Source: Acidimicrobiia bacterium (GTDB taxonomy: Bacteria; Actinomycetota; Acidimicrobiia; Spongiisociales; ZC4RG35). From it: a stretch of DNA of 64,000 bases. This document shows, piece after piece, positions 1 to 42,238 of the stretch. How positions within the stretch are numbered: the first letter of the stretch is position 1; each line of letters begins with the position of its first letter. The stretch lies in contig WFOA01000010.1 in NCBI GenBank assembly GCA_015488325.1, forward strand, positions 15,945 to 79,944, read 5' to 3'. The translations under genes and the position numbers were made by a program. The notes beneath the pieces were generated by a model. It did not search any database. It was not told the origin of the DNA and was given only the letters and a program-made list of their open reading frames with translations.

Positions 1-1413
1 CACCTCGGCGGTCCGGTCGTCGACCCACGCGAACAGCGCCTCGTCTCCCCGTCCCAGACCGTCGACGACGAACACGCAGGCCGACCAGCCTTCGGCGTAG
101 CGGGCCAGGTCGTCGGGGGTCGGGTCGCCGCTCGGGTAGCCGATGGCGGTGACGCCGAGCATCAGTTCGGTGACCGCTGGTTTCCGGGAGATGACCGGTT
201 CCGTCTCCACCCGTCCGGCGGCGTCCCGATGGGCCTGGTAGAAGTCGAGCTCCTTCGTCGAAGGGCCGATGCTCTGGACGAAGCCGGACAGCCCGGCCGC
301 CAAAGCGACGGCTGCCATCGTCGCCAGGATCCCGTAGACGACACGCCGCTTCGTCGCCGCCGAACGGACCCGGTCTGCGGCCAGGCCGCCGAGCCGGTCG
401 AAGGCCACCGCCAGTCCCCCGAGGAGGACCGGGGCGACGGGGACGACGAGGCGGACCGACTCGGTGACCCTGATCGGCCAGGCCAGCAGGAGGAGGAGGT
501 ACACGGCGGTGCCCGAGACGACATCCCATCGGAAGGGTCGGGAACGACCGAGCAGACCCCACGCCATCGCCGCCAGGGTGGCGGCGGCGAGGGCCGGGCC
601 GAGGGGTGTCGCCAACACCCGGTAGGGCCAGACCAGTCGGGGGACGCCGTACCGTCCGAAGGTGACGATCCCCGACCCTATCTGGCGGGCGACGGAGGCG
701 ACGGGGCCGGCGGTCGCCGCGTTGGCGTCGTAGATGCTCTCGGCGATCTCGACGTAGCTCGGGTCGGCGACCGGCCCGGTGGCGAAATGGGCTGCGGCGG
801 CGCCGAGGATCAGGACCAGCGCCACGATGGCGACCCGGAGCCGGCGGCGGAGGCGGAGCAGCCACAGGATCCCGAAGAAGGGTGCGACGGCGATGCGGAC
901 GGCGACGGCCGCACCGGTGATGGCCGCCGCCCACATCCCCCGGCGGTCGTCCGCCAACAACACGAGGGCGACGAAGGCGAGCACGACCGGTTCGGGGTTG
1001 ATACCCCGGAGGAACCCGAGTCCGGCCTGACCGAGAGCGAAGGCTGCCGTCACGCCCAGGGAGGCCCAGGCCGTCGCCCGGAGACGGACCACCCGGTAGG
1101 TGAGGGCCAGGGCCGCCACCGCCACCCCCACCGTGAGGACCTCGATGGCCACCGTCGCCGCCGCCGGGTCGCCTCCGGTCGCCCACAGGACCGGGACGAG
1201 GAGGATCGGCAGACCGGGGCTGTACCGGGACCGGGCGACGTCGCCTTCGGAGAAGGCGATGGCGTCCCGCAGGTAGTAGGTGCCGTTGCCGAGCTCCAGG
1301 TCGGGGCCGACCCGGGCCAGTTGGAGGAGGGCGAAGCCGACGAGGACGACGACCAGCCAGAACCGTTCGTCGAATCGGATGATGCGGCGTGCCGGCTCCG
1401 CCTCAGTCGTCAC
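1..1413 (-). CDS. Integral membrane protein, partial (runs off the window start); possible GT-C-type glycosyltransferase (DUF2029/PMT-like)
   Basis: The ORF track does not list it because its stop lies left of position 1. Reverse-strand translation from the GTG at 1413 gives a continuous, very hydrophobic multi-TM reading frame (e.g. ...RFWLVVVLVGFALLQLARVGPDLELGNGTYYLRD...IAFSEGDVARSRYSPGLPILLVPVLWATGGDPAAATVAIE...). The overlapping plus-strand ORF 229..1494 is D/E/G/R-rich antisense junk. The GTG start overlaps the stop of the upstream FAD-oxidoreductase gene, suggesting translational coupling. Confidence 0.5.
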   Translation of the reverse strand, partial: MTTEAEPARRIIRFDERFWLVVVLVGFALLQLARVGPDLELGNGTYYLRDAIAFSEGDVARSRYSPGLPILLVPVLWATGGDPAAATVAIEVLTVGVAVAALALTYRVVRLRATAWASLGVTAAFALGQAGLGFLRGINPEPVVLAFVALVLLADDRRGMWAAAITGAAVAVRIAVAPFFGILWLLRLRRRLRVAIVALVLILGAAAAHFATGPVADPSYVEIAESIYDANAATAGPVASVARQIGSGIVTFGRYGVPRLVWPYRVLATPLGPALAAATLAAMAWGLLGRSRPFRWDVVSGTAVYLLLLLAWPIRVTESVRLVVPVAPVLLGGLAVAFDRLGGLAADRVRSAATKRRVVYGILATMAAVALAAGLSGFVQSIGPSTKELDFYQAHRDAAGRVETEPVISRKPAVTELMLGVTAIGYPSGDPTPDDLARYAEGWSACVFVVDGLGRGDEALFAWVDDRTAEV

Positions 1414-2890
1414 GCACGGTCACCTTCCGAGGCACCATGCGGCCACCCGTGTCGTCGGCGGAGACCTCCTCCAGGTATTCGGCGTCCTGGTTGACCCGCC
1501 ACTGGTCCCATTCCTGACCCGCCAGGTTCCGGGCGGCCATGAGTCCGGTCATCATGGCATGGTCCTGGTTGTTGTATTTGTGCATGCCGTTGCGGCCGCA
1601 GAGCTGGAGGTTGTCGAACTCGGCGTCGAGGTAGCTGCGGATCACCGCCACGTTGGCGGCGTATTCCTCGTCGTAGACGGGGTACGCCTTGTGCACCCGG
1701 ATCACCGTGCCGTCGATCACCTTGTCCGAGTCGATGAGCCCGATGGAGGCGAGCTCGCGGGATCCCCGCTCCAGCAGCTCCTCGTCGGTGGCGTCCCACA
1801 GGTCGTCGCCTTCGTTGCAGAAGTACTCCAACCCGAGGGCGGTGTGCCGCTGATCGGGCACCATCTCCGGCGACCAGTTCTTGAAGTTCTGGACCCTGCC
1901 CACCCGGACGGACGGGTCGTGGATGTAGATCCAGTTGTCCGGGAACACGTCCGGGTCGTCGAGGACGAGGACGACGGTGAGGAAGTCCCGATAGCGAAGG
2001 GCCCGGGCGGCGTCGAGGACCTCCGACGGCGGTTTCGGGCGGAGACCTTCGACGAGGGCACGGATCGGCATCGACGACACCATGGCGTCGACGGCGACCC
2101 GGCGCGACTCCGTCGCCGTCTCCACTTCGAGGGCCACCACCCGCCCACCGTCGTGGTGGATCTCCGCGACGCGGGTTCCCAACTGGACCGACACGCCTCG
2201 GGCGGCGAGGTCTTCGGCGACCCGTTCCCACATCATCCCGGGGCCGAGGCGGGGGTATTCGAACTCTTCGATGAGGGTCTTGACGATCTCTCCCCGTTGA
2301 CCGAACAGCGCTTGTTTCACCGCTCGGAACAGGGAGAGCCCTTTGATGCGCTGCGCCGCCCAGTCGGCCGAGATCTCCGAACAGGGCATCCCCCACACCT
2401 TCTCGGTGTAGGTCTTGAAGAAGATCTCGTAGAGCCGGCGACCGAAATGGGCGACGACCCAGTCCTCGAAGGAGACGATGTTTCGTTTCGGACGAAGCGT
2501 CGACGCCAGGTAGGAGAATCCACATCGGGCGGCTTCGACGACCCCGAGCTTGCGGAGGGCGTCTTTGGCGTCGAGGGGGTAGCGGAAAAACCGGCCCCGG
2601 TAGTAGATCCGGGACATCCGCTGGCGGACCAGGAAGTCCTCGTCGGGCAGGAACCGATGCCACAGTTCACGGATCTCGTCGCTCTTGGTGAAGAAACGGT
2701 GTCCACCGATGTCGAAGCGGTACCCGCCGTAGCGTTCGGTTCGTGACAGCCCTCCGACGAGGCTCGGATGAGCCTCGAACACCGTCGGTCGCAGCCCCAG
2801 CCGGTCCAGCTCCCAGGCGGCGGTGAGCCCCGCCGGCCCGGCGCCGACCACCCCGATCGTCCCTGAAGATCCGTCGCCCATCGCTCCCAT
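1403..2890 (-). CDS. FAD-dependent oxidoreductase (HemY/amine-oxidase-like Rossmann flavoprotein)
   Basis: 495 aa. N-terminal dinucleotide-binding motif IGVVGAGPAGLTAAWEL; GGHRFFTKS motif; protein-like composition throughout. Same-strand operon with the membrane protein downstream. Confidence 0.8.
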   Translation of the reverse strand: MGAMGDGSSGTIGVVGAGPAGLTAAWELDRLGLRPTVFEAHPSLVGGLSRTERYGGYRFDIGGHRFFTKSDEIRELWHRFLPDEDFLVRQRMSRIYYRGRFFRYPLDAKDALRKLGVVEAARCGFSYLASTLRPKRNIVSFEDWVVAHFGRRLYEIFFKTYTEKVWGMPCSEISADWAAQRIKGLSLFRAVKQALFGQRGEIVKTLIEEFEYPRLGPGMMWERVAEDLAARGVSVQLGTRVAEIHHDGGRVVALEVETATESRRVAVDAMVSSMPIRALVEGLRPKPPSEVLDAARALRYRDFLTVVLVLDDPDVFPDNWIYIHDPSVRVGRVQNFKNWSPEMVPDQRHTALGLEYFCNEGDDLWDATDEELLERGSRELASIGLIDSDKVIDGTVIRVHKAYPVYDEEYAANVAVIRSYLDAEFDNLQLCGRNGMHKYNNQDHAMMTGLMAARNLAGQEWDQWRVNQDAEYLEEVSADDTGGRMVPRKVTVRDD

Positions 2891-2986: not shown

Positions 2987-5200
2987 TCACGGGGCGAGGT
3001 AGGAGTGGAGGGCGTCCCCCACGGTCTCGGAGACGACCCCCGGACCTCCGAGGATGAAGATGCGGCGAGGGGCGAGCCGACCCAGCTCGGTGGCCGTCGC
3101 CCCCGGGATGGCGTCGGGACGGGTGAGGAGCACGGGACGTCCTCCGAGGCCTCCGGGGGGTCCGCCGGCGAGGGCGTCGGGATAGTCGAGACCGGTGGCG
3201 ACCAGGACTTCCTCGGCGGTGGCGAAGCTCCCCTGGGAGACCGCCGCCGCCGTGGCGTACCGGTCGGCGCCGGCCCTCCGCACGACGGTGTAGTCGGCCG
3301 CCAGGCTCGCCTCGACGTCCGAGGAGATCACCCCGGTTCCCCCGAGGAGCACCACCGTGGACACCCCCAGATCCGCCAGGGCCTGGCGGGTCACCGTCGG
3401 GACCTGATCGGTACGGGTGAGAAGCAGCGGCCCCGGGATCGAGCCGGCGGCGGGGGCACCGGCGAGGGCGTCCGGGTAGTTCTCCCCGGTGGCCAGGTAG
3501 GCGGTGGAGGCACCCGAAGGCCACTGGCCGGAGGCCACCGCCGCCGCCGTGGCGTACCGGTCGGGCCCGGCCCACCGCACCACCGCCGGGTTGGAAGGGA
3601 GCCCCGCCAACGCCGCCGCCACCGCGTCGGAGATCACCCCGGTCCCGCCGACGATCACCACGGTCTTCGGGGCGAGGCGAACCAGCTCCGCCAGGGTGGC
3701 CGACGGGACGGCGTCGGTGCGTACCAGCAGCACCGGGGCGGAGGCCGCCGCCGCCGCCGGTCCGGCGGCGAGGGCGTCGGGATAGTTGAGACCGGTGGCG
3801 ACGAACACGGTGGCGGCGCCGTCGGGGAAGAAATACGAGGAGACGGCCGCCGCCGTCCCGTACCGGTCGGCGGCCCACAGGCGGATGACGCTGAACGCCT
3901 CGCCGACGAAGACGTCGCCTTCGGCGTTGGTGTCGTCGCCCACCAGGTTCGACGCGAAGGAGTCGAAGGCGACGAACCGTCCGTCGTCGGAGACGGAAGC
4001 CGCCAGAGAGTCGCTGTTGGAGGGGGTGCCGTCGGAGGCCACCGACACCAGTTCGGCCCGGTTCGTCTGACGGTCGTAGACGAACACGTCCCGCCGGCCG
4101 TTGGTGTCGTCGGCCACCAGGTTCGAGGCGTAGGAGTCGAAGGCGACGAACCGTCCGTCGGCCGAGATCGAGGCGTCCTGGGAGGCACCGTCGGCCTCGG
4201 TGCCGTCGAAACCGACCGAGACCCGTTCGACGGTGTCGGTCTGGCGGTCGTAGACGAACACGTCCTTCGTCCCGTTGGTGTCCCCCGCCACCAGGTTCGT
4301 CGCCGACGACTCGAAGGCCACGTACCGGCCGTCGGCCGAGATCGAGGCGAAGAAGGAGTCGGCGTCCCCCTCGGTACCGTCGGAGGCGACCGAGACCCGT
4401 TCGACGGTGTCGGCCTGACGGTCGTAGACGAACACGTCGCGGGCTCCGTTGGTGTCCCCGGCCACCAGGTTCGAGGCCCACGAGTCGAACGCCACGAACC
4501 GTCCGTCGTCGGAGAGGACGGGAAGCACCGACGAGGCGTTGCCCTGCGTCCCTCCCGACGCCACCGACACCCGTTCGATGGTGTCGGTCTGACGGTCGTA
4601 GACGAACACGTCGGTGTTGGCGTTGGTGTCTCCCGGCACCAGGTTCGTCGCCGACGATTCGAAGGCCACGTACCGGCCGTCCCCGGAGATGGAGGGGAAA
4701 CGGGCCGGCCCGTTGCTCTCCGCACCGTCCCAGGCGATCGACACCCGTTCGACGGTGTCGGTCTGACGGTCGTAGACGAACACGTCCGAGATGCCGTTGG
4801 TGTCCCCCGCCACCAGGTTCGTCGCCGACGACTCGAAGGCCACGTACCGGCCGTCTGTCGACAGCGACGGATGGAGGGAACTGGCATCGCCCTGGGTGCC
4901 GTCCGAAGCCACCGACACCCGCTCCACCGCACCGGTCCAGCGGTCGTAGACGAAGATGTCGGCGGTGGCGTTGGTGTCCCCCGCCACCAGGTTCGTCGCC
5001 CACGACTCGAAGGCCACGTACCGGCCGTCCCCCGAGATGGACGCGAACAGCGAGTATCCGTCACCTTCGGTCCCGTCGCCCGCCACCGACACCCGGTCGG
5101 TCACTACCCGGGCGGCCGAGACAGGCCGCACGCCGACGACGCCGGCGACCAGGGCCACGACGCCGATCCCGGCGATCCACCGTCTCGTCTTCGAGGTCAC
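2987..5200 (-). CDS. Cell-surface protein: signal peptide/TM, about 7 PD40 (TolB-like beta-propeller) repeats, then 3 C-terminal CWB2 (cell wall binding repeat 2) domains
   Basis: Repeated ~58-aa units of the type SxSxDGRYVAFESxATNLVxGDTNGxxDVFVYDRQTDTVERVSV. C-terminal triple repeat with RxAGxDRYxTAAAVS ... ATGxNYPDALAG ... PVLLxR ... VxxLGGTGVIS, which is typical CWB2/PF04122. Proposed start is the GTG at 5200, preceded by GGAGGG plus a 5-nt spacer, giving VTSKTRRWIAGIGVVALVAGVVGV signal/TM. The track start at 5248 is an in-frame GTG extension. The two other overlapping same-strand ORFs (2949..5003, 3655..5064) are compositionally junk. Confidence 0.8.
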   Translation of the reverse strand: MTSKTRRWIAGIGVVALVAGVVGVRPVSAARVVTDRVSVAGDGTEGDGYSLFASISGDGRYVAFESWATNLVAGDTNATADIFVYDRWTGAVERVSVASDGTQGDASSLHPSLSTDGRYVAFESSATNLVAGDTNGISDVFVYDRQTDTVERVSIAWDGAESNGPARFPSISGDGRYVAFESSATNLVPGDTNANTDVFVYDRQTDTIERVSVASGGTQGNASSVLPVLSDDGRFVAFDSWASNLVAGDTNGARDVFVYDRQADTVERVSVASDGTEGDADSFFASISADGRYVAFESSATNLVAGDTNGTKDVFVYDRQTDTVERVSVGFDGTEADGASQDASISADGRFVAFDSYASNLVADDTNGRRDVFVYDRQTNRAELVSVASDGTPSNSDSLAASVSDDGRFVAFDSFASNLVGDDTNAEGDVFVGEAFSVIRLWAADRYGTAAAVSSYFFPDGAATVFVATGLNYPDALAAGPAAAAASAPVLLVRTDAVPSATLAELVRLAPKTVVIVGGTGVISDAVAAALAGLPSNPAVVRWAGPDRYATAAAVASGQWPSGASTAYLATGENYPDALAGAPAAGSIPGPLLLTRTDQVPTVTRQALADLGVSTVVLLGGTGVISSDVEASLAADYTVVRRAGADRYATAAAVSQGSFATAEEVLVATGLDYPDALAGGPPGGLGGRPVLLTRPDAIPGATATELGRLAPRRIFILGGPGVVSETVGDALHSYLAP
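3880..5060. repeat. Intragenic tandem DNA repeats (about 170-175 bp period, about 6-7 copies) corresponding to the PD40 repeats
   Basis: Recurring near-identical segment ggtctgacggtcgtagacgaacacgtc at about 4070, 4250, 4425, 4597, 4767 and 4940. Confidence 0.7.
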
Positions 5201-5287
5201 CGAAACCCTCCACTCGTCCCCGTCGACACCTGTCGGACAGCGATGCACTCTAGCTTCCGCGCCTCCCCGGTCGAGGCCCAGTTCGGG

Positions 5288-6130
5288 TCAGAGTCGGCGG
5301 CCCCAGACCGCCAGGTCGAGGGAGGTGAGTTCCGACAGGTTACGGACCGACGCGTCGAGGCGGGCCGTCACCGACCCGGGAAGCGGCTGGTCCCGGGATT
5401 CCGCCCGCAGCCGTTCGGCCATCGGATCCCGGCGGAGCAGGAGGGGACGTACGAGCTTGCGGATCGCCCGGGGGGTGACCGGTTCGAGGCGCCGCAGCAG
5501 GCGGCTGTCGTACAGGCGCCTCATGAGGGGCGTGTAGTCGGGTTTGTCGGCGGTGACGTTCACGGCGACCCGGGGGTGGGGACTCGGCGGCAGATCCAGG
5601 AACGCCAGCACCTCGCTCCAGGCCGGATGCTCGCCGTCGACCAGATGTTCCATCTGGACGACCAGGAGCGCCTCGGTCCCGAACCGTTCGAGGAAGGGAG
5701 CCAGGGCCAGGTCGTAGAGGCTGCGGCGAACGTAGGGGTTGTCGGGTTCGGAGACGGCCTGGAGGAACGGTCGACGTTCCCTCCCATGATGCACTTCGTG
5801 CCGATAGTGGCTCCGCAGCCGGGTCTCCGGCTCCCGAAGCACACAGATGAGCCGCACCGACGGGCACATCTCGGCGATCCGAGCGGCGACCTCGGAGGCC
5901 ACCTGGGGGTCCGAGTACGCCACCGAAGCCTCCCCGGCGAGACCGTCGGTCGGGAACAGCGACCGGTAGCGCCGGTGGGCCCGGGAACCTGGCCCGTTGC
6001 CGGTGAGGAAGAACTCGGGTTCTTTCTCCCTGCACAGGATCGAACCCGACGCCTGCTGGAGCCACCGGAACAGGGCGGTGGTTCCCGATTTCATGGTGCC
6101 GACGATGATGAACTCGGGGTCGCGGCTCAT
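5288..6130 (-). CDS. Sulfotransferase family protein (PAPS-dependent)
   Basis: 5'-PSB-like P-loop FIIVGTMKSGTTALFRWL close to the N-terminus when starting at the ATG at 6130 (the track start at 6157 is TTG). About 280 aa, a typical size. Confidence 0.75.
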   Translation of the reverse strand: MSRDPEFIIVGTMKSGTTALFRWLQQASGSILCREKEPEFFLTGNGPGSRAHRRYRSLFPTDGLAGEASVAYSDPQVASEVAARIAEMCPSVRLICVLREPETRLRSHYRHEVHHGRERRPFLQAVSEPDNPYVRRSLYDLALAPFLERFGTEALLVVQMEHLVDGEHPAWSEVLAFLDLPPSPHPRVAVNVTADKPDYTPLMRRLYDSRLLRRLEPVTPRAIRKLVRPLLLRRDPMAERLRAESRDQPLPGSVTARLDASVRNLSELTSLDLAVWGRRL

Positions 6131-6203
6131 CTCAGGCTGACGGCTCCGAGGACCCAAACCGTAGACGGACCGCCTCCCCCGGAACTCCGGGCGTCGGGAA
6201 ATC

Positions 6204-6435: not shown

Positions 6436-8226
6436 GTGATCATCGCCAGTCCAGGGCTTCGCCGAAGCCTCTCCGTCCTCCTCGAACCGGGACGCCGCGC
6501 CCGGTGGGGGTGGCTGGTGGTGCTCGCCGCCGTCAACGCCGCCGTCGAAGCCCTCGGCGCCCTCCTCATCTTCTTCGCCGTCAACCGGGTCACCCAGAGT
6601 CCGTCGACGACCCCCCTCGACGCCTGGTTCCCGCCCGGTTCAGACCGGGCCACCATGATGGTCGTGGCTGCGGTGATCGGCGGCTTCTTCCTCGCCCGTG
6701 CCGTCTTCACCGTCGGCCGCACGTGGTTCGAGCACCAGGTGATCCAACACACCGCCGCCCGCACCGCCGACCGCCTGTTCCGCCGCTACCTGGCCACTCC
6801 CTACCGTGTCCATCTGCGTCGAAGCTCGCCCGAGCTGATCCGCAACGCCATCACGTCGGTCGACGAAGTGGCGATGCGGTTCCTCACCCCCCTGGTGAGT
6901 GTCAGCGGCGAGGCCGTCATCGTCGTCGTGATGGTGGCGGTCCTCGCCGTCACGGCACCGGTGGTCACCGTCGTCGCCGCAGGAGCGATCGGCGTCGTCG
7001 GTTTCGCCCTCCTCCGGTTCGTGCGGGGACGCCTCCGGCAGGTGGGACGGCTGTCCGAGCGTTCCCAGCAGCGGTCCTTCGCCGCCATCCAACACGGACT
7101 CGGGGACCTGCGGAACATCAAGGTCTACGGCCGGGAACGGTTCTTCGCCGCCATCTTTCAGACCGAACGTCTCGGGTTCGCCCGGGCCCGCTACGAGATG
7201 GCCACCCTGTCGGTGGTGCCCCGGGTGGGGATCGAGACCCTCGTGTTCCTGATGGTGGTGGGGTTCCTCGCCGTCGCCTCCGCCGACGCCGCCGCCGAAT
7301 CCCTGTCGGTCCTGGGGCTCTTCGCCTACGCGGCCCTGCGGATCATGCCGGGCGTCAACCGGATCATCCACGGCCTCAACCGGATCCGGTTCGCCACCGC
7401 GGCCGTCGACAACGTGGTCGCCGACCTGAGCGGACCCGAACCGTCGCTTCCTCCCCTTCGCAACCGGGAGGCACCCCTCGAATGGTCGGCCGTCGTCTTC
7501 GAAGACGTCTCCTTCCGCTACGACGACGACGGACCGGAGGTGCTCTCGGGGATCGACCTGACCCTCCGCAAGGGGTCGTCGACGGGGCTGGTCGGTCCTA
7601 CCGGTGCCGGGAAGTCGACCCTCCTCGACCTGATCCTCGGTCTGTTGGAGCCGACCGGCGGGACGATCACCCTCGATGGACGTCCCCTCACCGACGTCCT
7701 CGACCGGTGGCAGGCGATGATCGGTCTCGTCTCCCAGGACATCTTCCTCCTCGACGACACCATCCGCCGAAACGTCGCCTTCGGGATCCCCGACGACGAG
7801 ATCGACGACGACAAGGTATGGAGGGCCCTCCGCCTCGCCCAGCTCGCCGACTTCGTGGAGCAGACCGACCGGGGTCTCGACACCCCGGTGGGCGAACGCG
7901 GGGTGTCGCTGTCGGGGGGACAGCGTCAGCGGGTGGCGATCGCCCGGGCCCTCTACCACGACCCCGAGATCCTCGTCTTCGACGAGGCCACCTCTTCGCT
8001 CGACCCCGTCACCGAACGGGACCTCCTCGACGCCATCGACCAGCTCGGACGAGACCGGACCGTCGTCATGGTCGCCCACCGGCTCTCCACCGTCGAACGC
8101 TGCGACCGGATCGTCGTCGTCGACGGTGGCCGGATCGTCGCCGAAGGGGACTTCGGGGAGCTGACCCGGGACAGCGCCCTGTTCCGCCGCCTCTCCGCCC
8201 CTACGAGGCTGCCCGAACCGACCTGA
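6436..8226 (+). CDS. ABC transporter, fused permease/ATP-binding protein (MsbA/PglK-like exporter)
   Basis: N-terminal 6-TM domain, then Walker A GPTGAGKST, signature LSGGQRQRVAIARAL and Walker B ILVFDEATSSLD. GTG start. Confidence 0.85.
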   Translation: MIIASPGLRRSLSVLLEPGRRARWGWLVVLAAVNAAVEALGALLIFFAVNRVTQSPSTTPLDAWFPPGSDRATMMVVAAVIGGFFLARAVFTVGRTWFEHQVIQHTAARTADRLFRRYLATPYRVHLRRSSPELIRNAITSVDEVAMRFLTPLVSVSGEAVIVVVMVAVLAVTAPVVTVVAAGAIGVVGFALLRFVRGRLRQVGRLSERSQQRSFAAIQHGLGDLRNIKVYGRERFFAAIFQTERLGFARARYEMATLSVVPRVGIETLVFLMVVGFLAVASADAAAESLSVLGLFAYAALRIMPGVNRIIHGLNRIRFATAAVDNVVADLSGPEPSLPPLRNREAPLEWSAVVFEDVSFRYDDDGPEVLSGIDLTLRKGSSTGLVGPTGAGKSTLLDLILGLLEPTGGTITLDGRPLTDVLDRWQAMIGLVSQDIFLLDDTIRRNVAFGIPDDEIDDDKVWRALRLAQLADFVEQTDRGLDTPVGERGVSLSGGQRQRVAIARALYHDPEILVFDEATSSLDPVTERDLLDAIDQLGRDRTVVMVAHRLSTVERCDRIVVVDGGRIVAEGDFGELTRDSALFRRLSAPTRLPEPT

Positions 8227-13754: not shown

Positions 13755-14906
13755 TCAGCCGCCCCTCGGGTCGGGGCCGGCAGAGACGACCCTTCGGGCG
13801 ATGTCTCGCCACAGGTCCACGGCGAGGCTCTCGGGAAGGGAGACGTCGGCGGTCTGGAGGACGGCTCCGCGGGGCACCGGCCGTTCGACGACGGCGTCGC
13901 GAATCAGCCCGATGGGGACGTGCTCGGGATGGTCGACGATGCGGACCGCCCGGCCCCGGAGATCGAAGGATCCGATCCCCCGGTCGAGACGGTCGCCGGG
14001 ATGCAGGTCCCGTTTCGCCACGGCCGCCAGGGACAGCTCGGGGCGAGCCGAGTTGTCGAGGAGCACCCCGCCCCCTTCCGTCACCCGTCGGATCGTCTTG
14101 AGGATCTCCAGATGCACGAAGATGTTGGGTCGGACGAGGGTGTAGTAGGGCCCGTCGCCCATCTTGTAGTACCGCAGGGCCGGGGCCTGGTCGGGGTCGT
14201 GGGTGGCGACGATGAACACGCCGTGGCTGAGATGGGGTGAGACGACGAAGTCGGTCACCGGCCGCCCCACCTTCTCCGCCAGCGACGCCAGGCGGGCGGC
14301 GCCGTCGGACAGGTCGTCGACCGCCGCCCCTTCCATGCCGTCGGGCCCGATGGTGGCACCGAAACGGTTCCCGACGAGGACCTGTTCGGCTTCGACCTTG
14401 GTGCCGTCGGTGAAGGCGGTCACCATCGGGAGGCTGATGCCCTGACGCTCGGCCCAATACTCCATCTCGTCGGGGGTGGGATCCCGGTTGAGGAACCCTT
14501 TCATGTTCCCGTAGGCGACGGGCCGAAAGCCCATCGCCACTGCCTCTTCGTGCAGCTCGGCGAGACAGCCCGGCTGGTCGCCGGCGGCTTCGGTCACGAC
14601 CCCTCGGCCGACGAAAGCCGAGCCGGTGGTGATGTGGAACTCGGTGTTCATGGTGACGACCGGGACGCCGCGGTCGACGGCCGCGGCCACCACGTCGGTC
14701 GCCCAGATGGGATCACCCGAGCATTCGACGACGACGTCGGCGTGGTCGACGAGCTCGTCGATCGAACGGGTGACCAGGTCGTCGTCGAAGACGTCCACCG
14801 TCCGACGTCGGGTGAGCACCTTGACGATACGGGCCGTGTCCCTCCGCCGGACTTCGGTGGCGAAGTTCCGGGCGATGAAGCCGGTTCCGACCAGACCCAG
14901 GTTCAT
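13755..14906 (-). CDS. NAD(P)-binding oxidoreductase with C-terminal SAF domain (COG4091-like predicted dehydrogenase)
   Basis: Start [15 protein letters not shown] (Rossmann GxGxxA). ATG at 14906 overlaps the rmlA stop (ATGA). The upstream in-frame extension is Arg-rich junk. Confidence 0.6.
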
Positions 14907-15808
14907 CGGATCGGCCTCGACCGGGGTGCCCAGCCGCTGAAGGGCTGGTCCAACAGCTCGAGCAGGTACTGGCCGTACTGGGAGGAACGCATGGCACCGG
15001 CGAGCCGGCGGACCTGTTCGGCGTCGATGTAGCCCATCCGCCAGGCGATCTCCTCGGGGGCTGCGATCTGCAGACCCTGGCGGCGTTGGATCGTGGCGAT
15101 GAAGTTGGAGGCTTCGAGCAGGGCGTCGTGGGTTCCCGTGTCCATCCAGGTGGTTCCCCGGCCCAAGAGCTGCACCGACAGTCGGCCCTGTTCCAGATAC
15201 ACCCTGTTGAGGTCGGTGATCTCGAGTTCGCCCCGGGCCGACGGTTTCAGGCCTTTGGCGATGGAGGAGACGTCGCCGTCGTAGAAGTAGAGCCCGGTGA
15301 CGGCGAAGTTCGAACGGGGCCGTTCCGGTTTCTCCTCGATGGACAGCACCGTGCCCTTCTCGTCGAACTCGATCACCCCGTACCGCCGGGGGTCTCGCAC
15401 GTAGTAGGCGAACACGAGGGCCCCTTCGGTGAGGGCGGCGGCCTCCTGCACCCGGTCGGTGATGCCGTAGCCGAAGAAGATGTTGTCGCCGAGGATCAAA
15501 GCGACGGGGTCGCCGTCGACGAACCGTTCCCCGACGATGAAGGCGTCCGCCAGGCCCCGCGGTTCGGGCTGAAAGGCGTACGAGAAGCTGAGTCCCCACT
15601 GACTGCCGTCTCCGAGGACGTTGTGGAAGCTGGGGGCGTCGCCGGGGTTGGTGATGACGAGGATGTCGCGGATCCCGGCCAGCATCAGCACCGAGAGCGG
15701 GTAGTAGATCATCGGCTTGTCGAACACCGGTAGGAGCTGTTTGGAGACCCCCCGGGTGACGGGGGCCAGCCGGGTCCCCGAGCCGGCAGCGAGGATGATC
15801 CCTTTCAT
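14903..15808 (-). CDS. rmlA: Glucose-1-phosphate thymidylyltransferase
   Basis: [52 protein letters not shown] ... is near-canonical RmlA/RfbA. The ATG at 15808 overlaps the upstream gene's stop by 4 nt. Confidence 0.9.
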
Positions 15809-16842
15809 CCCTCCGGCTCCAGGTCGATGAGAGCTCCGTCGAGCTCCACTTCGGCGAGACGGCGGCGCCATTCGGTGAGCAGCCGGTACCACTCGAGGGT
15901 GATGGTGTCGGGGGTCCGGTCGGTGAGACCCGCCGAGAGGGCCTCCACCACCTCCTGGACCCCGTCGATGGCGGTGAGTTCCGCCTTGTACCCCCGGGAT
16001 TCGATCTTGTCGAAGCACACCCGGTAGGACCGGTGGTCGGGGTCTCCGTACCATTCGATCTCGACGTCGTCGCCCACCGTTTCGGCGACGAGCCGGCCGA
16101 GGGGCCCGATCTGGTACACGTTCGCCTCCGAGCCCACGTTGAAGATCTCCCCGCTCACGTCCGAATGGGGAGCTTCGATGGCCCAGATGAGGGCGCGGCT
16201 GGTGTCGGCGACGTGGACCATCGGGCGCCACTGGCTTCCGTCCCGCATCAGCGGGAGACGACGATGTTTCCACGCCCCGTACGTCATCCCGTTGATGGCC
16301 AGGTCGAAACGCATCCGCGGGGAGTAGCCGTACACCGTCGCCTGGCGGAGCACCACCACACCGAAGGTGTCGCAGGCCAGGGGCAGCACCCCCGCCTCGG
16401 CCCGCTCGTTGGCCTGGGCGTAGATGGTGAGGGGGTTGGTGGGATGGGTCTCGTCGGCCACCACGTCGGGGTCTTGGAACCCGTACACCGAACAGGAGCT
16501 CGGCAGCACGTATCGTTCCACCCCGGCTTCACGGGCCAGACGGGCGCATCGCACCCTCGCCTCGTAGTTGATCTGCCAGGTGGCTTCGGGGAAGAGGGCG
16601 CCGCTGGGGTCGTTGGAGATGGCGGCCAGGTCGATCACGTACCGGACCCCGGAGAAATGGTCGGGACGCAGGCGTCGGGTGTCTTCGGTGATCTTCTCCA
16701 CCCGGTCGTCGTCGGCGAGGCGGTCCCGCCCGAAGAAGAACCGGTCGATGACCCGTACCCGGTATCCCCGTTCGACCAGCATCGGGACCAGGGTGGTGCC
16801 GATGTATCCGCCGCCGCCGGTCACCATCACCAGATCACTCAT
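15805..16842 (-). CDS. NAD-dependent epimerase/dehydratase (SDR family; candidate dTDP-sugar dehydratase/reductase)
   Basis: [15 protein letters not shown] Rossmann motif, YxxxK region, 345 aa. ATGA-type overlaps on both sides (rmlC upstream, rmlA downstream). Confidence 0.85.
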
Positions 16843-17411
16843 GGGGTCTCCTCGTCGTAGGTGAAGTACACGGGCAGGTCGGCGAAGCGGGGCTGTCTCC
16901 GGTCTTTCTCGGAGACGATGGCCTCGTCGGGGGCCACCGGCCAGTCGATCCCGAGGTCGGGGTCGTCCCAGGCCACCCCCCGGTCCACGTCGGGTGACCA
17001 GTGACTCGTGACCTTGTACAGGACTTCGGTGTTGGGTTGGAGGGTGCAGAACCCGTGGGCGAAGCCCACCGGCACGTAGACCTGGTTCCAGGCCTCCGCC
17101 GACAGTTCGACGGCGACGTGCCGCCCGAAGGTGGGTGAACCTCTGCGGAGGTCGACGAGGACGTCGAAGACGGCTCCGGCGGTGACCCGCACCAGCTTGG
17201 ACGTGGCCGCCGGGGGGACCTGGAAGTGGAGACCGCGTACCACTCCGACGTCCACCGAGAGGGAGTGGTTGTCTTGAACGAAGTCATCGTGGATGCCCAG
17301 CTCGGCGAGGGTTCGGCGGTTGTACACCTCGGAGAAGAAGCCCCGTTCGTCTCGGTGACGGTCCGGTACGAACAGCCACGCCCCCGGCAGCTCGAGCTCG
17401 ATCGCTTCCAC
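16839..17411 (-). CDS. rmlC: dTDP-4-dehydrorhamnose 3,5-epimerase
   Basis: Cupin RmlC motifs ...FVPDRHRDERGFFSEVY ... RGLHFQ. Proposed GTG start at 17411 has GGAGG 4 nt upstream; the track start at 17429 is also GTG. Confidence 0.85.
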   Translation of the reverse strand: MEAIELELPGAWLFVPDRHRDERGFFSEVYNRRTLAELGIHDDFVQDNHSLSVDVGVVRGLHFQVPPAATSKLVRVTAGAVFDVLVDLRRGSPTFGRHVAVELSAEAWNQVYVPVGFAHGFCTLQPNTEVLYKVTSHWSPDVDRGVAWDDPDLGIDWPVAPDEAIVSEKDRRQPRFADLPVYFTYDEETP

Positions 17412-17500
17412 CTGGCCTCCCCTCCACACCCACGGTCATGTTACCCGCCGGCACCGGGCCGACAAGGTGCGTCTCGAACCCCGCCGGAGCGTTTCCCAGG

Positions 17501-18679
17501 TCACCGCCCCAGCACCTCGTGGTAGAGACGCTCCAACTCGGCGGCCACTCGGTCCGGGCGAAATCCCTGCTCCACCACCCGTTTGGCGGCGGCACCGAGG
17601 CGGGCCCGCAGCTCGGCGTCTTCCGCCAGCTCGACGATCGCCGCCGCCAGCGCCTCAGGGTCCTGGGGTGGGACCGTGAGACCGCTTTCGCGGTCGGTGA
17701 CGACGTCGCTCATCGGGGGAACACCGGTGACGACGACCGCGCATTCGGCGGCCATCGCCTGCAGCATCGCCACCCCGATCCCTTCGAACAGGGAAGGGAA
17801 GGCGAAGACGTCGGCGGCCGCCAACAGGTCGACGACGTCACGGCGGTGCCCGAGGAACCGCATTCGGTCGCCGAGACCGGACGCGGCGAGCCGTCTCCGG
17901 AGGTCGTCGCTGAGACTGCCCGGCGTGCCGGCGACCAGGGCCCGAGCGGTGGGGATCCGGTCCACCACGAGCCGCATCGCTTCGATCAGGTAGCGCTGAC
18001 CCTTCTGGGGGGCTTCCCGGCCGATGTTCACCACGAGGAAGGTGTCCTCTGCCCAACCCATCTCCCCGAGGATCCGCTTCCGGGCGGCCTCACGGCCGCC
18101 GACGGGGACGAGATCGGCCGGGTCGACCGCCCGGGGGATGACGGCGATCCGTTCGTCGGCGATACGAGCGGTGTCTCTCCACGACCGAGCCACCTCCCCG
18201 GAGATGGCATGGAAACGGGTGACCAGCCGCATGGTGGTGGTGTCCACCACCTGGTAGGCCCGCAGCTTCCACCAGGCCAACGGGTTGTCGAGGGATTTCA
18301 CCTTCTCGTTGGCGATGTTCACCAGGGTCTCCACCACAGGAACGCGGAGGCGACGCCCGGCGAACCGGGCCGCCAAGGCGGCGTCGGCGAGGGAGCAGTG
18401 GACGAGGTCCGGCTCCAGATCGCGAAGTACACGGATGAGGTCACGGGCCCGGGTCCAGGGCCCGGGACGGGCGACACCCTTCGGGTACAGGTGGACGACC
18501 GGCACGGTCGAAGGCACTTCGTCCCTTCGCGACGGATCGACTTCGTAGAGGCAGACGAGGCTGTGGCGCAGCTCGGGGTCGGTGAACGACCGGAGGTTGG
18601 TGACGAGTTGCTGTTCGGCCCCCCCGGTCGCCGCGATCGAGTTGATGACGTGGACGACATGCGCCCGTCTGCGCGTCAT
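17501..18679 (-). CDS. Glycosyltransferase family 4
   Basis: Real start MTRRRAHVVHVINSIAATGGAEQQ (ATG at 18679). C-terminal EGIGVAMLQAMAAECAVVVTGVPPMSDVV GT4 motif. The upstream extension to 19072 is junk that overlaps the deacetylase gene. Confidence 0.8.
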   Translation of the reverse strand: MTRRRAHVVHVINSIAATGGAEQQLVTNLRSFTDPELRHSLVCLYEVDPSRRDEVPSTVPVVHLYPKGVARPGPWTRARDLIRVLRDLEPDLVHCSLADAALAARFAGRRLRVPVVETLVNIANEKVKSLDNPLAWWKLRAYQVVDTTTMRLVTRFHAISGEVARSWRDTARIADERIAVIPRAVDPADLVPVGGREAARKRILGEMGWAEDTFLVVNIGREAPQKGQRYLIEAMRLVVDRIPTARALVAGTPGSLSDDLRRRLAASGLGDRMRFLGHRRDVVDLLAAADVFAFPSLFEGIGVAMLQAMAAECAVVVTGVPPMSDVVTDRESGLTVPPQDPEALAAAIVELAEDAELRARLGAAAKRVVEQGFRPDRVAAELERLYHEVLGR

Positions 18680-18846
18680 GGTTCGGTGCGCTCCCGGCTC
18701 GGTGTCCTCCTCCGCCTCGACGAACCCGGCGTCTGCGGGCACCGAACCGTTCGCGTCGCTCCCCCGTCCGGCATGGGTTCCCCTCTCGAACGTCCACCGC
18801 GCATTATCGGACGCCGACGGGTTCAGGACCAAGTTCCCCACCTCGG

Positions 18847-19629
18847 TCACGGGCCCCGGTACCCCGACACCAATGACCGCACCCGATCTTCCAGGCTGAG
18901 GCCGCCACGCACCCGGGGCCCGAAGAACACCCGGCCGTCGGCCGCCTGCACGGGGATGCGGGGGATGCGGTGGCGGTCGGTTCCGGGCCCGACCGGGCCG
19001 GGACGTCCCAGCACGGCCGTCTCGTATCGCCGCCGGACCACCCCGTCGGCCCCCTCCGACCAGTAGCCCCACGGGTAGGCGAAATGGCGGGGCCGGATCC
19101 CCAGGCGCCGCTCGATGAGCTCGTCGGAGGCGGCGAGCTCGGATTCGACCTGGTCGGGCGCCAAGGAGCGTAGGTCGACGTGTCGATGGGTGTGAGCGCC
19201 GATCGTGACGAGGCCCGACGCCACCATCTCCTCCACCTGTTCCCAGCGCAACGGGCGGCCGTCGGGGTAGAGGGGCGTTCCCGTCTCGACGGGTTCGGTG
19301 GTGAGGAACAGGGTGAAGGGCATCTGCAAGTCGCGCAGCAGCGGGAACGCGTGCTCGTAGACATCGACGTAGCCGTCGTCGAAGGTGATCGCGACCTCCA
19401 GGGTCTCGCCATGACCGCCATCGACGGCCTGTTCGAAGGGGAGCACCCGGGCGTGCTCCGCCAACCAGGCGACATGGGCGCGAAACACCTCGGGGGTGAC
19501 GTCCATCTGGCGGGCGGATCCGCCCCCCACCTGGTGGTAGATGAGGATGCGGGGCCCGGCGACAGGCGAGAGGAGTGGGTCGGCCACGACCGCGGCCATC
19601 TTGAGGAGTCGCCGGATGAGGTGCGCCAT
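18847..19629 (-). CDS. Polysaccharide deacetylase (NodB-homology, CE4)
   Basis: TFDDGY motif and His-containing motifs (IGAHTHRHVDL). Start ATG at 19629 lies immediately after the Wzc-like stop. Confidence 0.8.
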   Translation of the reverse strand: MAHLIRRLLKMAAVVADPLLSPVAGPRILIYHQVGGGSARQMDVTPEVFRAHVAWLAEHARVLPFEQAVDGGHGETLEVAITFDDGYVDVYEHAFPLLRDLQMPFTLFLTTEPVETGTPLYPDGRPLRWEQVEEMVASGLVTIGAHTHRHVDLRSLAPDQVESELAASDELIERRLGIRPRHFAYPWGYWSEGADGVVRRRYETAVLGRPGPVGPGTDRHRIPRIPVQAADGRVFFGPRVRGGLSLEDRVRSLVSGYRGP

Positions 19630-19633: not shown

Positions 19634-22429
19634 TCAGCGATGGGACATCGGGGGGCCGAGGGCGAGGAGCTCCTCGTCGGTGAGGACCGGCTGCGCCAGG
19701 AGCCCGAGACGCTGGACCGGCGCCAGGTTGGGGCGGATCCCCTCGGACCAGTCGGGGTCCCAGCCGAGGGGCTGCTCGTTGGCGGACCGCCACGGGTAGT
19801 AGATGCGGGCTCCGTCGATCGTCCCCTCGTAGAGCCAGCCGAGACTGATCTCGAAGTACCGGACCTCTTCGATCTGCTCTTGGAGGGCGGCGGCCGTCTC
19901 GGCCTGGTTCCGTTTCGCCGCCGCCCGTTGCTTGCGGTCCAGACGCTCGATCACGGCCTTCACGTAGTCGCCCGCCAGGTGGTCGAGGGCGTCACGGTCG
20001 AACCGGGGGGCGTAGACGAACACGTTGACGGCGCCCCGCTGGCTGGCCAGATGCCAGATCACCGGCGCCCGTTCGGTCGTGGCCACGTGGATCCGGAAGA
20101 AGTTGGCGACGAGCCACTCGTCGATGGTGGGGGCCTGCCCCCCTCCGACGGCCCCGATGATCCGGGTGATGTGACGTTCCAACTCGGCGGCGGCTTTGGT
20201 GCCGAGCTCGGCCCGCAACCCGGCGAGCAGGTAGGACCCCACCGTCCGGTATCCCCGAGCCTCGTCGAGGGGAAGGAAGTCCGGGATCTGGGAGAAACCG
20301 TGTTCGGTGGCGGCGACCGGCGAGGACATGAGGAGGTTCTCGACCCGGGAGACGAGGAAGTTGGCGACGGCCGGGTAGGCACGCTCCGGCTCGGCCTCCG
20401 CCAGACGCTCGACCAGCTCCAAGGCGACGGATTCGTCGACCGCGGCCGTTCCCGTCGGCGGCGGGATCGGCCCCCCGGCCGGAGGCTCGACGGTCGGTTC
20501 GACGACCTGGCCGTCACCGGTCTCGGCGTCGGCGTCCGCCGGGACCGCCGTGGCCTCCACGGTGGGCTCCGGCTCGGGTGTCGGCTCCGCCACCTCCCCT
20601 GGCGGGGCCTCGGTGTCGGTCACCGCTTCGACCAGGGTCCCCAGGTCGGCCTGGGCGGGCTCGAACGTGGAGATCCGGCGGGGACGGGGCGCCGGTGCAC
20701 GGGCGGGTTCGGCGGCCGGTTCCCGGGGGGCGACCGCCGGAGCGACCGGCCGACCCCGTCCGAGACCGGCCGCGGGCATGACGCCCCGCCGGTCCACGAA
20801 CACCGCTCCGAGGAACTTGGCTCCCCGATCTTCGAGATCCGCCACCCGGTCGGCGAGCTCGGTGCGAGAGACCCGACCCGGGACGAGGGTGACGACGGCG
20901 TAGTCGACCCGTTGCACCAGCTCCTGAGCGGTCGCCACGGTGAGGTCGTTGGCGGCGAACAGCACCAGGTCGAACCGGGCCGAAGCCACCCGGATGAGGT
21001 CGGCGAGGAGGGGGCGGGCCAGCAGCTCGGAGGGGTCTTCGGTGGGTGAGCCGGCCTGCACGGAGATGAGGTTGGGTCGGACCGGCCGGGCCTGCGCCAG
21101 TATCCGGGCGAGGGCGGCGTCGTCGCCTTCGGGGATCTCGAGCAGCGTGGCGAAGTCGACGTCGCCCCGGTACTCCACCATGTTGGTGTCGTGGGTGAAG
21201 TCGGCGTCCACCAACAGGACCGAACGCCCTGCCCGGGCGAACGCCACCGCCAGGTCGGCGGCGAGGGCGTGGACGTCCTCGGGTTGCGTGCCGAGGCCCG
21301 TGACCGCCACCGCCGCCCCCAAGCCTCCGATCCGACCCTGCAGCCCGGCACGGAGCCCCTGGACGGCACGTTTTCTCCGCCCCCCTTCTTCCGCGTCGTA
21401 CCAGATGCTCCGCCGTGACGGTTTGCGGATCGGTACGGCCGCGAGGAGGGGAAGCGGAGCCAGGTCGGCCCCGGTCCAGACCGGCTTGAACAGGCGGTCG
21501 ACGACCAGCAAGCCCGCCACAGCGAGGACGAGGCCGACCAGCAGGCCGATGGCTCCGGCCGCTCCCCGTGAGACGGGGTCCGGTGTCTGGTCCACGACGT
21601 CGATGACCTCGGACACGACCGGGCCCGACAGCGCCGCCTGACGGAGGAACAGCTCCTGGAACGAAGCCTCCAACTCTTCGTATTCCCGTTCGAGGGCCCG
21701 GCGCAGGGTCTGCTCCGCGCTGAACTCGGAGACCGTCGGCGGCGGGCCGAGCCGGTCGAGCTGGGCGTTGACGGTGGCGATCGCCAGGGTCGTACGGTCG
21801 AGATCCGCCTGAACTTCGTCTTCGGCTCGGTCGCTGCCGACCAGCAGCTCCTTTTGGTATTCGAGGGCGTCGGCCCGCAGCGACTCGAGGAGCGCCTGCA
21901 GTTCGGCCCGCTCCTCCTCGTCGGGGTCGACGGCGACAGGCGAGCCGATGGCCTCGATCCGGGCCCGCACGTCCGCCATCCGGGCGGAGATCTGTTCGAG
22001 TTGGGTCTGGATCTGCTCCAGGACGTTGGGGGGCTGGCCTTCGAGATACCGGGACCGCAGCTCGCCGGCCCGGGCCTGCGCCTCCTCGGTGCTCGACCCT
22101 TCGGCGACGAAGACGAGGGCGCCTCGATCGACGTCGCTGAAGATCTCCCAGGAGGGGTTGGCCTCGAGCAGGTCGGCGTTCACTTCGAGGGCGAAGGCGA
22201 GGGCCTCTTCGAGACGGGCCTGGGCGAAGTCTCGGGACACACCCGACGGGTTGTCTTCGCTCTCGACGCTGGCGACGACGGTGACCGGGGCCTCCGCCCG
22301 GATCACCGGGGTCAGGGAGGCGTTCCTCCAGGCGGCGCCGAACACGCCGGCGGCGAAGCCGAGCACGGCGAACACCACCACCCAGGGCCAGCGGGCCCGG
22401 AGGACACGAAGGGTGCGGGTCAGGTCCAA
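19634..22429 (-). CDS. Wzc/Wzz-like polysaccharide co-polymerase (PCP2a topology) with degenerate P-loop ATPase domain and a large unassigned C-terminal domain
   Basis: TM1 MDLTRTLRVLRARWPWVVVFAVLGFAAGVF, long coiled-coil-rich periplasmic segment, TM2 AAGAIGLLVGLVLAVAGLLVVD. The cytoplasmic BY-kinase-like domain has its Walker A replaced (VAVTGLGTQPEDV, no GKS) while Walker A' VLLVDADF and Walker B-like FDLVLFAAND are retained. There is no C-terminal Tyr cluster. Instead a Pro/Glu-rich linker is followed by a domain of about 340 aa that I could not assign. Likely TTG start. The other overlapping frame (20514..22643) is Arg-rich junk. Confidence 0.7.
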   Translation of the reverse strand: MDLTRTLRVLRARWPWVVVFAVLGFAAGVFGAAWRNASLTPVIRAEAPVTVVASVESEDNPSGVSRDFAQARLEEALAFALEVNADLLEANPSWEIFSDVDRGALVFVAEGSSTEEAQARAGELRSRYLEGQPPNVLEQIQTQLEQISARMADVRARIEAIGSPVAVDPDEEERAELQALLESLRADALEYQKELLVGSDRAEDEVQADLDRTTLAIATVNAQLDRLGPPPTVSEFSAEQTLRRALEREYEELEASFQELFLRQAALSGPVVSEVIDVVDQTPDPVSRGAAGAIGLLVGLVLAVAGLLVVDRLFKPVWTGADLAPLPLLAAVPIRKPSRRSIWYDAEEGGRRKRAVQGLRAGLQGRIGGLGAAVAVTGLGTQPEDVHALAADLAVAFARAGRSVLLVDADFTHDTNMVEYRGDVDFATLLEIPEGDDAALARILAQARPVRPNLISVQAGSPTEDPSELLARPLLADLIRVASARFDLVLFAANDLTVATAQELVQRVDYAVVTLVPGRVSRTELADRVADLEDRGAKFLGAVFVDRRGVMPAAGLGRGRPVAPAVAPREPAAEPARAPAPRPRRISTFEPAQADLGTLVEAVTDTEAPPGEVAEPTPEPEPTVEATAVPADADAETGDGQVVEPTVEPPAGGPIPPPTGTAAVDESVALELVERLAEAEPERAYPAVANFLVSRVENLLMSSPVAATEHGFSQIPDFLPLDEARGYRTVGSYLLAGLRAELGTKAAAELERHITRIIGAVGGGQAPTIDEWLVANFFRIHVATTERAPVIWHLASQRGAVNVFVYAPRFDRDALDHLAGDYVKAVIERLDRKQRAAAKRNQAETAAALQEQIEEVRYFEISLGWLYEGTIDGARIYYPWRSANEQPLGWDPDWSEGIRPNLAPVQRLGLLAQPVLTDEELLALGPPMSHR

Positions 22430-24360: not shown

Positions 24361-24389
24361 CAGAACCTCCCAGCTCTCGCATCCCCACT

Positions 24390-42201: not shown

Positions 42202-42202
42202 G

Positions 42203-42229: not shown

Positions 42230-42238
42230 GCGCCTGCA

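Follow-up and report, generated by a model that had tools for sequence, protein, structure and literature searches.

In a 64,000-nucleotide window of contig WFOA01000010.1 (assembly GCA_015488325.1, forward-strand positions 15,945 to 79,944), we examined a minus-strand gene at 2987..5200 that encodes a 737-aa protein joining a PD40 beta-propeller to three CWB2 repeats, together with the sulfotransferase gene beside it and the glycan locus in which both lie. The stop codon of the propeller-CWB2 gene is at 2987-2989 and its GTG start codon at 5200, with GGAGGG as the ribosome-binding site 5 nt 5′ of the GTG. Its guanine-plus-cytosine (GC) content at third codon positions (GC3) is 0.90, and GC3 together with codon-usage scoring picks out 2987..5200 in this window of 70% GC. 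Starts at 5203 and 5248 gave no match in exact look-ups, and 5200 is the correct start. A 737-aa protein 99% identical to the target (P0001) occurs in ENA, NCBI, and JGI assemblies, and the 90%-identity cluster to which the target belongs has 10 members from NCBI, GEM, JGI, and ENA assemblies. We take the product to be a secreted, CWB2-anchored surface protein, its export and wall binding being predicted from its domains.

Profile searches recovered PF04122 (CW_binding_2) in three stretches of the protein at 178.7 bits (E 3e-53; cut-off 24.9 bits) and PF07676 (PD40) at 39.5 bits (E 4.9e-10). The first-pass annotation, which had described about seven PD40 repeats and three CWB2 repeats at 2987..5200, was therefore right in both coordinates and domains. 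An AlphaFold2 model built from an alignment of 46 sequences reached a predicted local distance difference test (pLDDT) score of 91.1 and a predicted template modelling score of 0.83. It consists of a disordered segment (residues 1-31), seven four-stranded blades (32-434), and three alpha/beta units (438-737). The disorder of residues 1-31 fits a signal peptide, and we annotate one there (5108..5200, minus strand; MTSKTRRWIAGIGVVALVAGVVGVRPVSA, followed by A) on the basis of its hydrophobic segment, the model, and its sequence. It would comprise an n-region of MTSKTRRW, a hydrophobic h-region at aa 9-27, and a plausible cleavage site between VSA and A. The n-region string T-R-R-W-I-A (aa 4-8, window 5176-5191) resembles a twin-arginine (Tat) motif, so the propeller might be exported folded via Tat instead of Sec. 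Without the signal peptide, the mature protein is strongly acidic, with an isoelectric point (pI) of 4.1.

The propeller (aa 32-436; 3893..5107, minus strand; pI 4.05) is of the PD40/TolB type and contains exactly seven 58-aa repeats with zero indels. Its DNA (window 3925-5099) is a 174-bp tandem array of 6.8 copies with 76% matches. Seven equal blades without indels in such an array suggest recent amplification or concerted evolution. The domain is rich in Ser and Thr, and a D-T-N-G-x-x-D loop that recalls calcium-binding propeller loops recurs in every blade. Foldseek searches of the PDB matched the propeller to TolB and S9-peptidase propellers (E about 1e-14). These closest folds are non-catalytic, and no catalytic domain or active-site signature was seen in the propeller-CWB2 protein.

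The remainder of the protein is the triple CWB2 module (aa 437-737; 2990..3892, minus strand), with repeats at aa 437-538, 539-637, and 638-737. Each repeat carries one ILL-type motif (PVLL, PLLL, and PVLL, respectively), the counterpart of “PILL”, a motif whose ILL residues Cwp66 of Clostridioides difficile requires for anchoring (PMC4973711). A phmmer search against PDB sequences matched the module to C. difficile Cwp6 (5j72, E 1.3e-26). C. difficile CWB2 proteins also took the top ranks of a Foldseek search of the PDB: Cwp6 (5j72, E 3e-23), the high-molecular-weight subunit of SlpA (SlpA-HMW, 7acy_B), and Cwp8. Superposed on 7acy_B, the modelled anchor gave a TM-score of 0.72 at a root-mean-square deviation of 2.1 Å, so that the structure prediction proposed for the CWB2 trimer returned an SlpA-like fold. 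The target thus shares with the PSII (polysaccharide II)-anchored proteins SlpA, Cwp2, Cwp6, Cwp8, Cwp66, and CwpV three tandem, non-identical CWB2 repeats with the (P)ILL motif, and with C. difficile Cwps in general the pseudo-trimeric fold, a variable head, and a signal peptide. It differs from them in its high-GC, probably Acidimicrobiia host, in its PD40-propeller head, and in sequence, identity being only about 20-24%. The host is placed in Acidimicrobiia provisionally, from the named organisms of its nearest homologs and from composition of the sequence.

On the same strand, 87 bp upstream of the target, lies a gene for a 280-aa sulfotransferase (5288..6130, minus strand). The first-pass annotation had placed a sulfotransferase next to the target, and the assignment held: the protein scores 32.5 bits against Pfam Sulfotransfer_3 (cut-off 27 bits), and its relatives are of the carbohydrate type. 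The best PDB match is heparan sulfate 3-O-sulfotransferase 5 (3-OST-5; 3bd9, E 7e-10), with N-sulfotransferases also near. The lysine of the 5′-phosphosulfate-binding (PSB) motif, the Arg and Ser of the 3′-phosphate-binding (PB) motif, and the catalytic Glu align with the motifs of 3-OST-5. These residues (K14 in GTMKSGTT, E37, and R99 and S107 in REPETRLRS) are invariant across 22 sulfotransferase homologs, and we annotate the protein as a cytoplasmic enzyme dependent on 3′-phosphoadenosine-5′-phosphosulfate (PAPS). Neither a signal peptide nor a transmembrane segment was seen in its transmembrane profile, from which we expect its substrate to be a lipid-linked or nascent glycan on the cytoplasmic side.

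The genomic settings of related sulfotransferases point to the same kind of acceptor. Homologs with 40-47% identity lie inside three further glycan loci. One (L166) contains a Wzm/Wzt exporter, glycosyltransferase family 2 (GT2) and family 4 (GT4) genes, and a pyruvyl transferase. The second (L170; 5224-10843 and 17030-17737), in Acidimicrobiaceae metagenome-assembled genome (MAG) GCA_041166745.1, has six sulfotransferases with one GT2 and one GT4 gene. The third (L172; 4290-13971 of a 2.84-Mb ENA contig) has five sulfotransferases, GT4 genes, a deacetylase, and a GNAT gene. Given these loci, a glycan is the probable acceptor for the target's neighbour. In L170 and L172, five to six paralogous sulfotransferases per cluster are interleaved with GT2/GT4, deacetylase, and GNAT genes. 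Bacteria of the Acidimicrobiia type may thus sulfate their glycans extensively as a rule, a trait that has gone unstudied.

The sulfotransferase and target genes open a co-directional string that continues into an FAD-dependent oxidoreductase and a GT-C-like membrane protein, with gaps of 87 and 96 bp on the two sides of the target. The oxidoreductase (1403..2890, minus strand, downstream of the target) belongs to the FAD/NAD-dependent PRK07208 family (NCBIfam NF005548, 724.7 bits). It has an amine-oxidase fold (Pfam Amino_oxidase in L001, a second contig of the species) and a weak resemblance to UDP-galactopyranose mutase. The membrane protein (1..1413, minus strand) is polytopic, with about 10 transmembrane segments, and is cut by the window edge. 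Its full length of 489 aa was taken from L001, and its GT87 match (21.3 bits) is under the 25-bit cut-off, so that the GT-C-like label is a weak one. A scan for promoters and terminators around this string gave counts no higher than in shuffled sequence.

The string lies inside a glycan locus of more than 45 kb, which within the window runs from the left edge to about 33.66 kb. Upstream of the sulfotransferase are a fused ABC exporter of the MsbA/HepA/PglK type (6436..8226, plus strand; NCBIfam, and Pfam in L001) and a GT2 gene (8238-9140, minus). A GT4 gene (9247-10404, plus), a second GT2 gene (10395-11300, minus), a Wzx/MOP flippase (11323-12897, plus; Pfam, and NCBIfam MOP flippase/TuaB-like), and a third GT2 gene (12876-13739, minus) follow. 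Next, on the minus strand at 13755..19629, Pfam matches identify a DRL oxidoreductase, an RmlA-like protein, an epimerase/dehydratase, RmlC, a GT4 protein, and a polysaccharide deacetylase. A 931-aa protein with two transmembrane segments (19634..22429, minus) resembles polysaccharide co-polymerases and tyrosine autokinases (TIGR01007 at 55 bits, below cut-off, with further Wzc/EpsG matches). Its residues 742-855 also match the C-terminus of the methyltransferase PglX of the bacteriophage exclusion (BREX) system weakly (38.6 bits, far below cut-off).

The rest of the locus (within 22420..33658, mixed strands; Pfam and NCBIfam) holds a PglF/CapD-like 4,6-dehydratase, an epimerase, a GT4 gene, and a GNAT gene before its right end. 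There we found a 448-aa protein with about eight transmembrane segments in its profile (27523-28869, plus), a candidate Wzy with no family match, and a WecA-like phosphotransferase (28856-29794, minus; Pfam and NCBIfam). Two unusual fusion glycosyltransferases complete the locus: a GT4 with a C-terminal GNAT domain (29782-31536, minus; Pfam) and an N-terminal NTP_transf_5 domain joined to GT4 (31547-33658, minus; Pfam). In total, the window encodes three GT2 genes and five GT4 genes; in two of the latter, GT4 is fused to GNAT or NTP_transf_5. Past the left edge, related contigs continue with the GT-C-like protein of about 10 transmembrane segments, a second, MurJ-like Polysacc_synt flippase, a methyltransferase, a deacetylase, two GT4 genes, and a GT2 gene. 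Glycan genes on both sides (L001, L002, and L163) show that the target is embedded in the locus rather than at its border. The first-pass annotation had placed the target between the sulfotransferase and a polysaccharide locus. The locus is present, with the GT2/GT4, Wzx, WecA-like, and ABC-exporter genes that it listed, whereas target and sulfotransferase lie inside the locus rather than beside it, and its “Wzy-like” gene, the 448-aa protein, is unconfirmed. An initiating polyprenyl-phosphate transferase (WecA-like), glycosyltransferases, and a flippase or exporter are all present, as in secondary cell-wall polymer loci.

Beyond 33.8 kb, the window turns to housekeeping genes, including acyl-CoA dehydrogenases, Suf genes, fumarase, GltB, and sigma-70. 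The Suf genes are split into three pieces, SufC-SufS-NifU, SufC-Rieske-SufD, and SufB (41059-44730, 49874-52247, and 56928-58340). Between them lie a two-component system, fumarase, a gene of the uracil-DNA glycosylase family, a DUF4015 glycosyl-hydrolase-like gene, and a sigma-70 gene. An M23 peptidase at the right edge was considered as a further CWB2 protein and rejected, since its 201 aa include no CWB2 repeat. Rfam and tRNA scans of the window found nothing.

The arrangement around the target is conserved over a short evolutionary distance. Four contigs (L001, L083, L163, and L164) come from the same species as the window, with 99.65% DNA identity over 15.2 kb. A fifth (L002) represents a related species with about 77-79% DNA identity. 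Its ortholog of the target shares 81% identity over the propeller and 85% over the CWB2 module, and the neighbouring genes are 64-92% identical. As regards a possible S-layer role, the divergence of the target, like its codon score, is ordinary for the locus. Despite a local rearrangement, the ortholog of the sulfotransferase (E 3e-126) has kept its place upstream of the target, again on the target's strand. In L002, the MsbA/PglK-like ABC exporter is absent (L002 7967-9768 vs. window 5288-8226), and the orthologous sulfotransferase is separated from the target by a second, divergent sulfotransferase of 280 aa, encoded on the opposite strand. The locus is otherwise syntenic, with this segment as its variable spot.

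To place the two halves of the protein, we searched for each and for their fusion. The CWB2 triple alone gave at least 2,602 matches with E below 1e-10. The best, 40-54% identical, came from Actinobacteria, Acidimicrobiales, and Actinomycetota MAGs, Intrasporangium, and Ca. Limnocylindria, and the closest triples were all from high-GC Actinomycetota, Acidimicrobiia, and Chloroflexota. The first-pass annotation had called the anchor “Firmicute-style”, a label that this distribution contradicts. It agrees with the report that CWB2 occurs in Actinobacteria, especially Micrococcales (Desvaux et al. 2018). GTDB species representatives with CWB2 matches included Acidimicrobiia, Dermatophilaceae, Kineococcus, Rathayibacter, Ornithinimicrobium, Coriobacteriia, Chloroflexia, and Bacillota. 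All of these were CWB2-only matches, with no full-length ortholog of the target among the representatives.

NCBI names such proteins “cell wall-binding repeat-containing protein”. Heads fused to the matched triples included NlpC/P60, CAP, M23, amidase, GH18, subtilase, and VanY. Proteins of this name from Actinomycetota and Chloroflexota are the closest relatives of the target's anchor (40-54% identity). They carry the triple CWB2 at either the C- or the N-terminus, and their heads extend to SpoIID and glucose/sorbosone-dehydrogenase (GSDH) domains; propellers of both the GSDH and the PD40 type are represented. Unlike the target, most have enzymatic heads, and none sampled lies beside a sulfotransferase. 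To our knowledge, and from the literature that we searched, none of these Actinomycetota and Chloroflexota proteins has been characterised experimentally.

The propeller head is very widespread, with every one of the 8,000 candidates that were scored passing E 1e-10. Elsewhere it is joined to SLH, PG_binding_1, PKD, Ig-like, and calcium-binding modules, and its pairing with SLH or PG_binding_1 anchors fits a model of swappable anchors (bioRxiv 10.1101/2025.04.02.646754). A census of PD40-CWB2 fusions, made with an exhaustive junction-spanning query and Pfam confirmation, found the fusion in at least 8 distinct 50%-identity clusters, with the anchor at either terminus. Together with the CWB2 matches in high-GC lineages, this recurrence indicates a known modular family rather than a transfer from Firmicutes. 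Among the proteins seen along the way, two tandem PD40-CWB2 paralogs share one short contig (L175, 17-4660), and a 40%-identical homolog of the target adjoins an IS21 element (L084). Two giant proteins, P0405 (6770 aa) and P0398 (7417 aa), contain 52-78 matches to the target's blade, and one stretch of P0405 spans the blade-CWB2 junction.

The same organism probably encodes a second CWB2 protein. Contig L098 (JGI Ga0256830_1004855), from the same metagenome as L083, carries at 3200-5668 (plus strand) a gene for an 823-aa protein with a GSDH propeller and three CWB2 repeats. Directly 3′ of it, at 5772-7499 (plus strand), is a bifunctional PUA_2/ATP-sulfurylase/adenosine-5′-phosphosulfate (APS)-kinase gene, that is, a PAPS synthase. 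The GC content of this contig is 0.695, and its tetranucleotide correlation with the window (0.976) equals the within-window control obtained from the window halves; on this match it probably belongs to the same organism. In another Acidimicrobiia MAG (bin10049; L013, 2481-10969), a gene combining SpoIID with CWB2 has, at a distance of 2 kb, a PAPS synthase and a sulfate-symporter-like gene of the SLC13/CitMHS type. Two housekeeping genes, for a PduO-type adenosyltransferase and PepA, stand between the PAPS synthase and the CWB2 gene there, and the proximity is probably fortuitous.

Taking these results together, we favour the reading, at a probability of roughly 55%, that the target is an exported surface protein held non-covalently in the wall and encoded in a locus that probably makes a sulfated envelope glycan. 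The N-terminal signal peptide would direct export through Sec, or possibly Tat. The three C-terminal repeats are predicted to fold into a pseudo-trimeric module, as in SlpA, Cwp6, and Cwp8, that would dock on a wall-linked secondary glycopolymer, leaving the acidic seven-bladed propeller displayed outward as a putative binding platform. The cytoplasmic, PAPS-dependent sulfotransferase would most likely sulfate the lipid-linked glycan ahead of export. The product of the locus is thus probably a sulfated and hence anionic envelope glycan, a conclusion drawn from gene content.

Several observations weigh against this reading, in particular against a tie between anchor and local glycan. The sulfotransferase-CWB2 adjacency is kept only in a narrow clade of two related species. 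A phmmer search found a homolog of the target's sulfotransferase in 0 of about 155 other CWB2 loci, and recognisable glycan genes were present in about 14% of them, a lower bound because single-sequence searches are insensitive. A distant CWB2-PD40 gene (L176) has no glycan genes nearby. No LytR-CpsA-Psr (LCP) ligase (PF03816) was found among the genes of the window and the flanks in L001 and L002 (about 55 kb), or in the L163 flank, although one may lie elsewhere in the genome, so attachment of the product to the wall is unsupported. The CWB2 module is itself net acidic (pI 4.6) and gives no electrostatic argument for binding a polyanion. PAPS synthase genes near CWB2 genes do not form a rule, since about 160 loci yielded 2 such cases where chance would give about 0.5, which is not a significant excess. 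The second CWB2 contig has been assigned to this genome only by shared sample, GC, and tetranucleotide similarity, and the organism itself is known only from metagenomes. One further apparent link, a CWB2 protein (P0143) and a sulfotransferase (P0351) sharing one 39,294-bp contig, was rejected because the two come from different samples, their contigs merely being of equal length.

Much of this evidence is what would be expected if the target were an ordinary CWB2 surface protein that binds a general wall polymer encoded at another site in the genome, envelope genes merely tending to cluster. Most other CWB2 loci are not beside glycan genes and are never beside this sulfotransferase family, L176 stands alone, and the LCP ligase is missing from the locus. 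The probable second CWB2 protein of the organism is also encoded at a different locus, so a shared ligand need not be encoded beside each CWB2 gene. Mere co-location is a possible explanation, which we nevertheless think less probable than the reading above. The place of the target between the sulfotransferase and the oxidoreductase and GT-C-like genes, with its narrow gaps, is kept in two species, and the cwp genes of C. difficile directly adjoin the locus that makes their ligand.

The C. difficile case makes it reasonable to consider an anionic polymer produced by the local genes as a candidate CWB2 ligand. The more specific proposal, that in this Acidimicrobiia-like lineage the surrounding locus makes a sulfated secondary cell-wall glycopolymer and the CWB2 modules recognise it, is one we advance tentatively and consider doubtful. 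It draws on the adjacency in two species, the neighbouring CWB2 and PAPS synthase genes of L098, the multi-sulfotransferase glycan loci of related genomes, and the C. difficile precedent. Anchors have likewise been reported to co-distribute with polymer-synthesis genes in Peptostreptococcaceae, namely CWB2 and SLH with CD2777 and TagA (bioRxiv 10.1101/2025.04.02.646754). Neither a sulfated secondary cell-wall polymer nor, for Actinobacteria, a ligand of CWB2 was the subject of any paper found in a literature search.

An unlikely alternative is that the locus glycosylates the propeller-CWB2 protein, which would then carry an O-linked, possibly sulfated glycan instead of binding one. The S-layer genes sgsE and sgtA of Geobacillus lie close to slg clusters with rml genes, glycosyltransferases, and an ABC transporter (PMC2943079), and our locus likewise has a surface-protein gene near RmlA, RmlC, many glycosyltransferases, a PglK-like ABC exporter, and two polytopic proteins that could be transferases. 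The Ser/Thr-rich propeller would also fit this reading. The slg systems differ, however, in that their anchor is SLH or another type, a WsaB-type O-oligosaccharyltransferase is present, and a sulfotransferase is absent. In our locus, no protein gave a Pfam or NCBIfam match to a Wzy_C, O-antigen-ligase, or WsaB-type oligosaccharyltransferase, the 448-aa and 489-aa polytopic proteins remaining as candidates, and the co-polymerase/tyrosine-kinase-like protein is typical of polymer export. Least probable is a role for the protein in assembling or processing the polymer within the wall, its propeller a TolB-like scaffold or a glycan-binding or -trimming module that CWB2 only places. Its operon-like, same-strand position between modification enzymes and the wall-acting heads of many CWB2 proteins (NlpC/P60, M23, amidase, GH18, and SpoIID) would suit such a role, yet it lacks a catalytic signature, its nearest folds are non-catalytic propellers, and hundreds of other proteins combine this head with unrelated domains in unrelated settings.

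Neither element of the arrangement is without precedent. The first-pass annotation had called it, to its knowledge, undescribed. A CWB2 gene beside a wall-polymer locus is, however, the known layout of C. difficile, whose PSII, or anionic polymer (AP), locus immediately adjoins the slpA/cwp cluster (PMC4973711), CWB2 in Actinobacteria is already on record, and the PD40-CWB2 fusion recurs across clusters. The target's locus resembles the C. difficile one in having a CWB2 gene near a glycopolymer-type locus. It differs in having a sulfotransferase and no mannose-phosphate or LCP genes, and SecA2 and Cwp84 were not seen. Nor is a sulfotransferase in an actinomycete glycan locus new. The wps-1 cluster of Actinoplanes missouriensis, described in 2026, is a Wzx/Wzy locus with two sulfotransferases, one of the heparan-sulfate type, from which sulfated polysaccharides in actinomycetes were proposed without chemical proof; sulfated bacterial polysaccharides are otherwise regarded as essentially cyanobacterial (PMC13390465), as with the xss cluster for synechan (PMC8205485). 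Like wps-1, our locus places a heparan-sulfate-family sulfotransferase in a Wzx-type actinobacterial glycan locus, together with a methyltransferase and a co-polymerase-like gene. Its CWB2 gene has no counterpart in wps-1 or xss, whose proposed product is an exopolysaccharide (sporangium matrix or bloom slime).

If the CWB2 modules did bind a sulfated polymer made by this locus, sulfate esters would take the role that phosphodiesters play in C. difficile PSII and pyruvate ketals in SLH anchoring. That would be a third chemical solution for the non-covalent anchoring of surface proteins, the first case of a Gram-positive bacterium with a sulfated wall polymer, and the first evidence for sulfated cell-wall glycans in Actinomycetota. 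As it stands, the target is one more modular CWB2 surface protein, and the value of the result is mainly corrective: CWB2 extends beyond Firmicutes, and uncultured lineages of high GC have it in abundance. The multi-sulfotransferase loci of Acidimicrobiaceae-type genomes suggest, in addition, that glycan sulfation may be widespread in the class and is worth chemical study.

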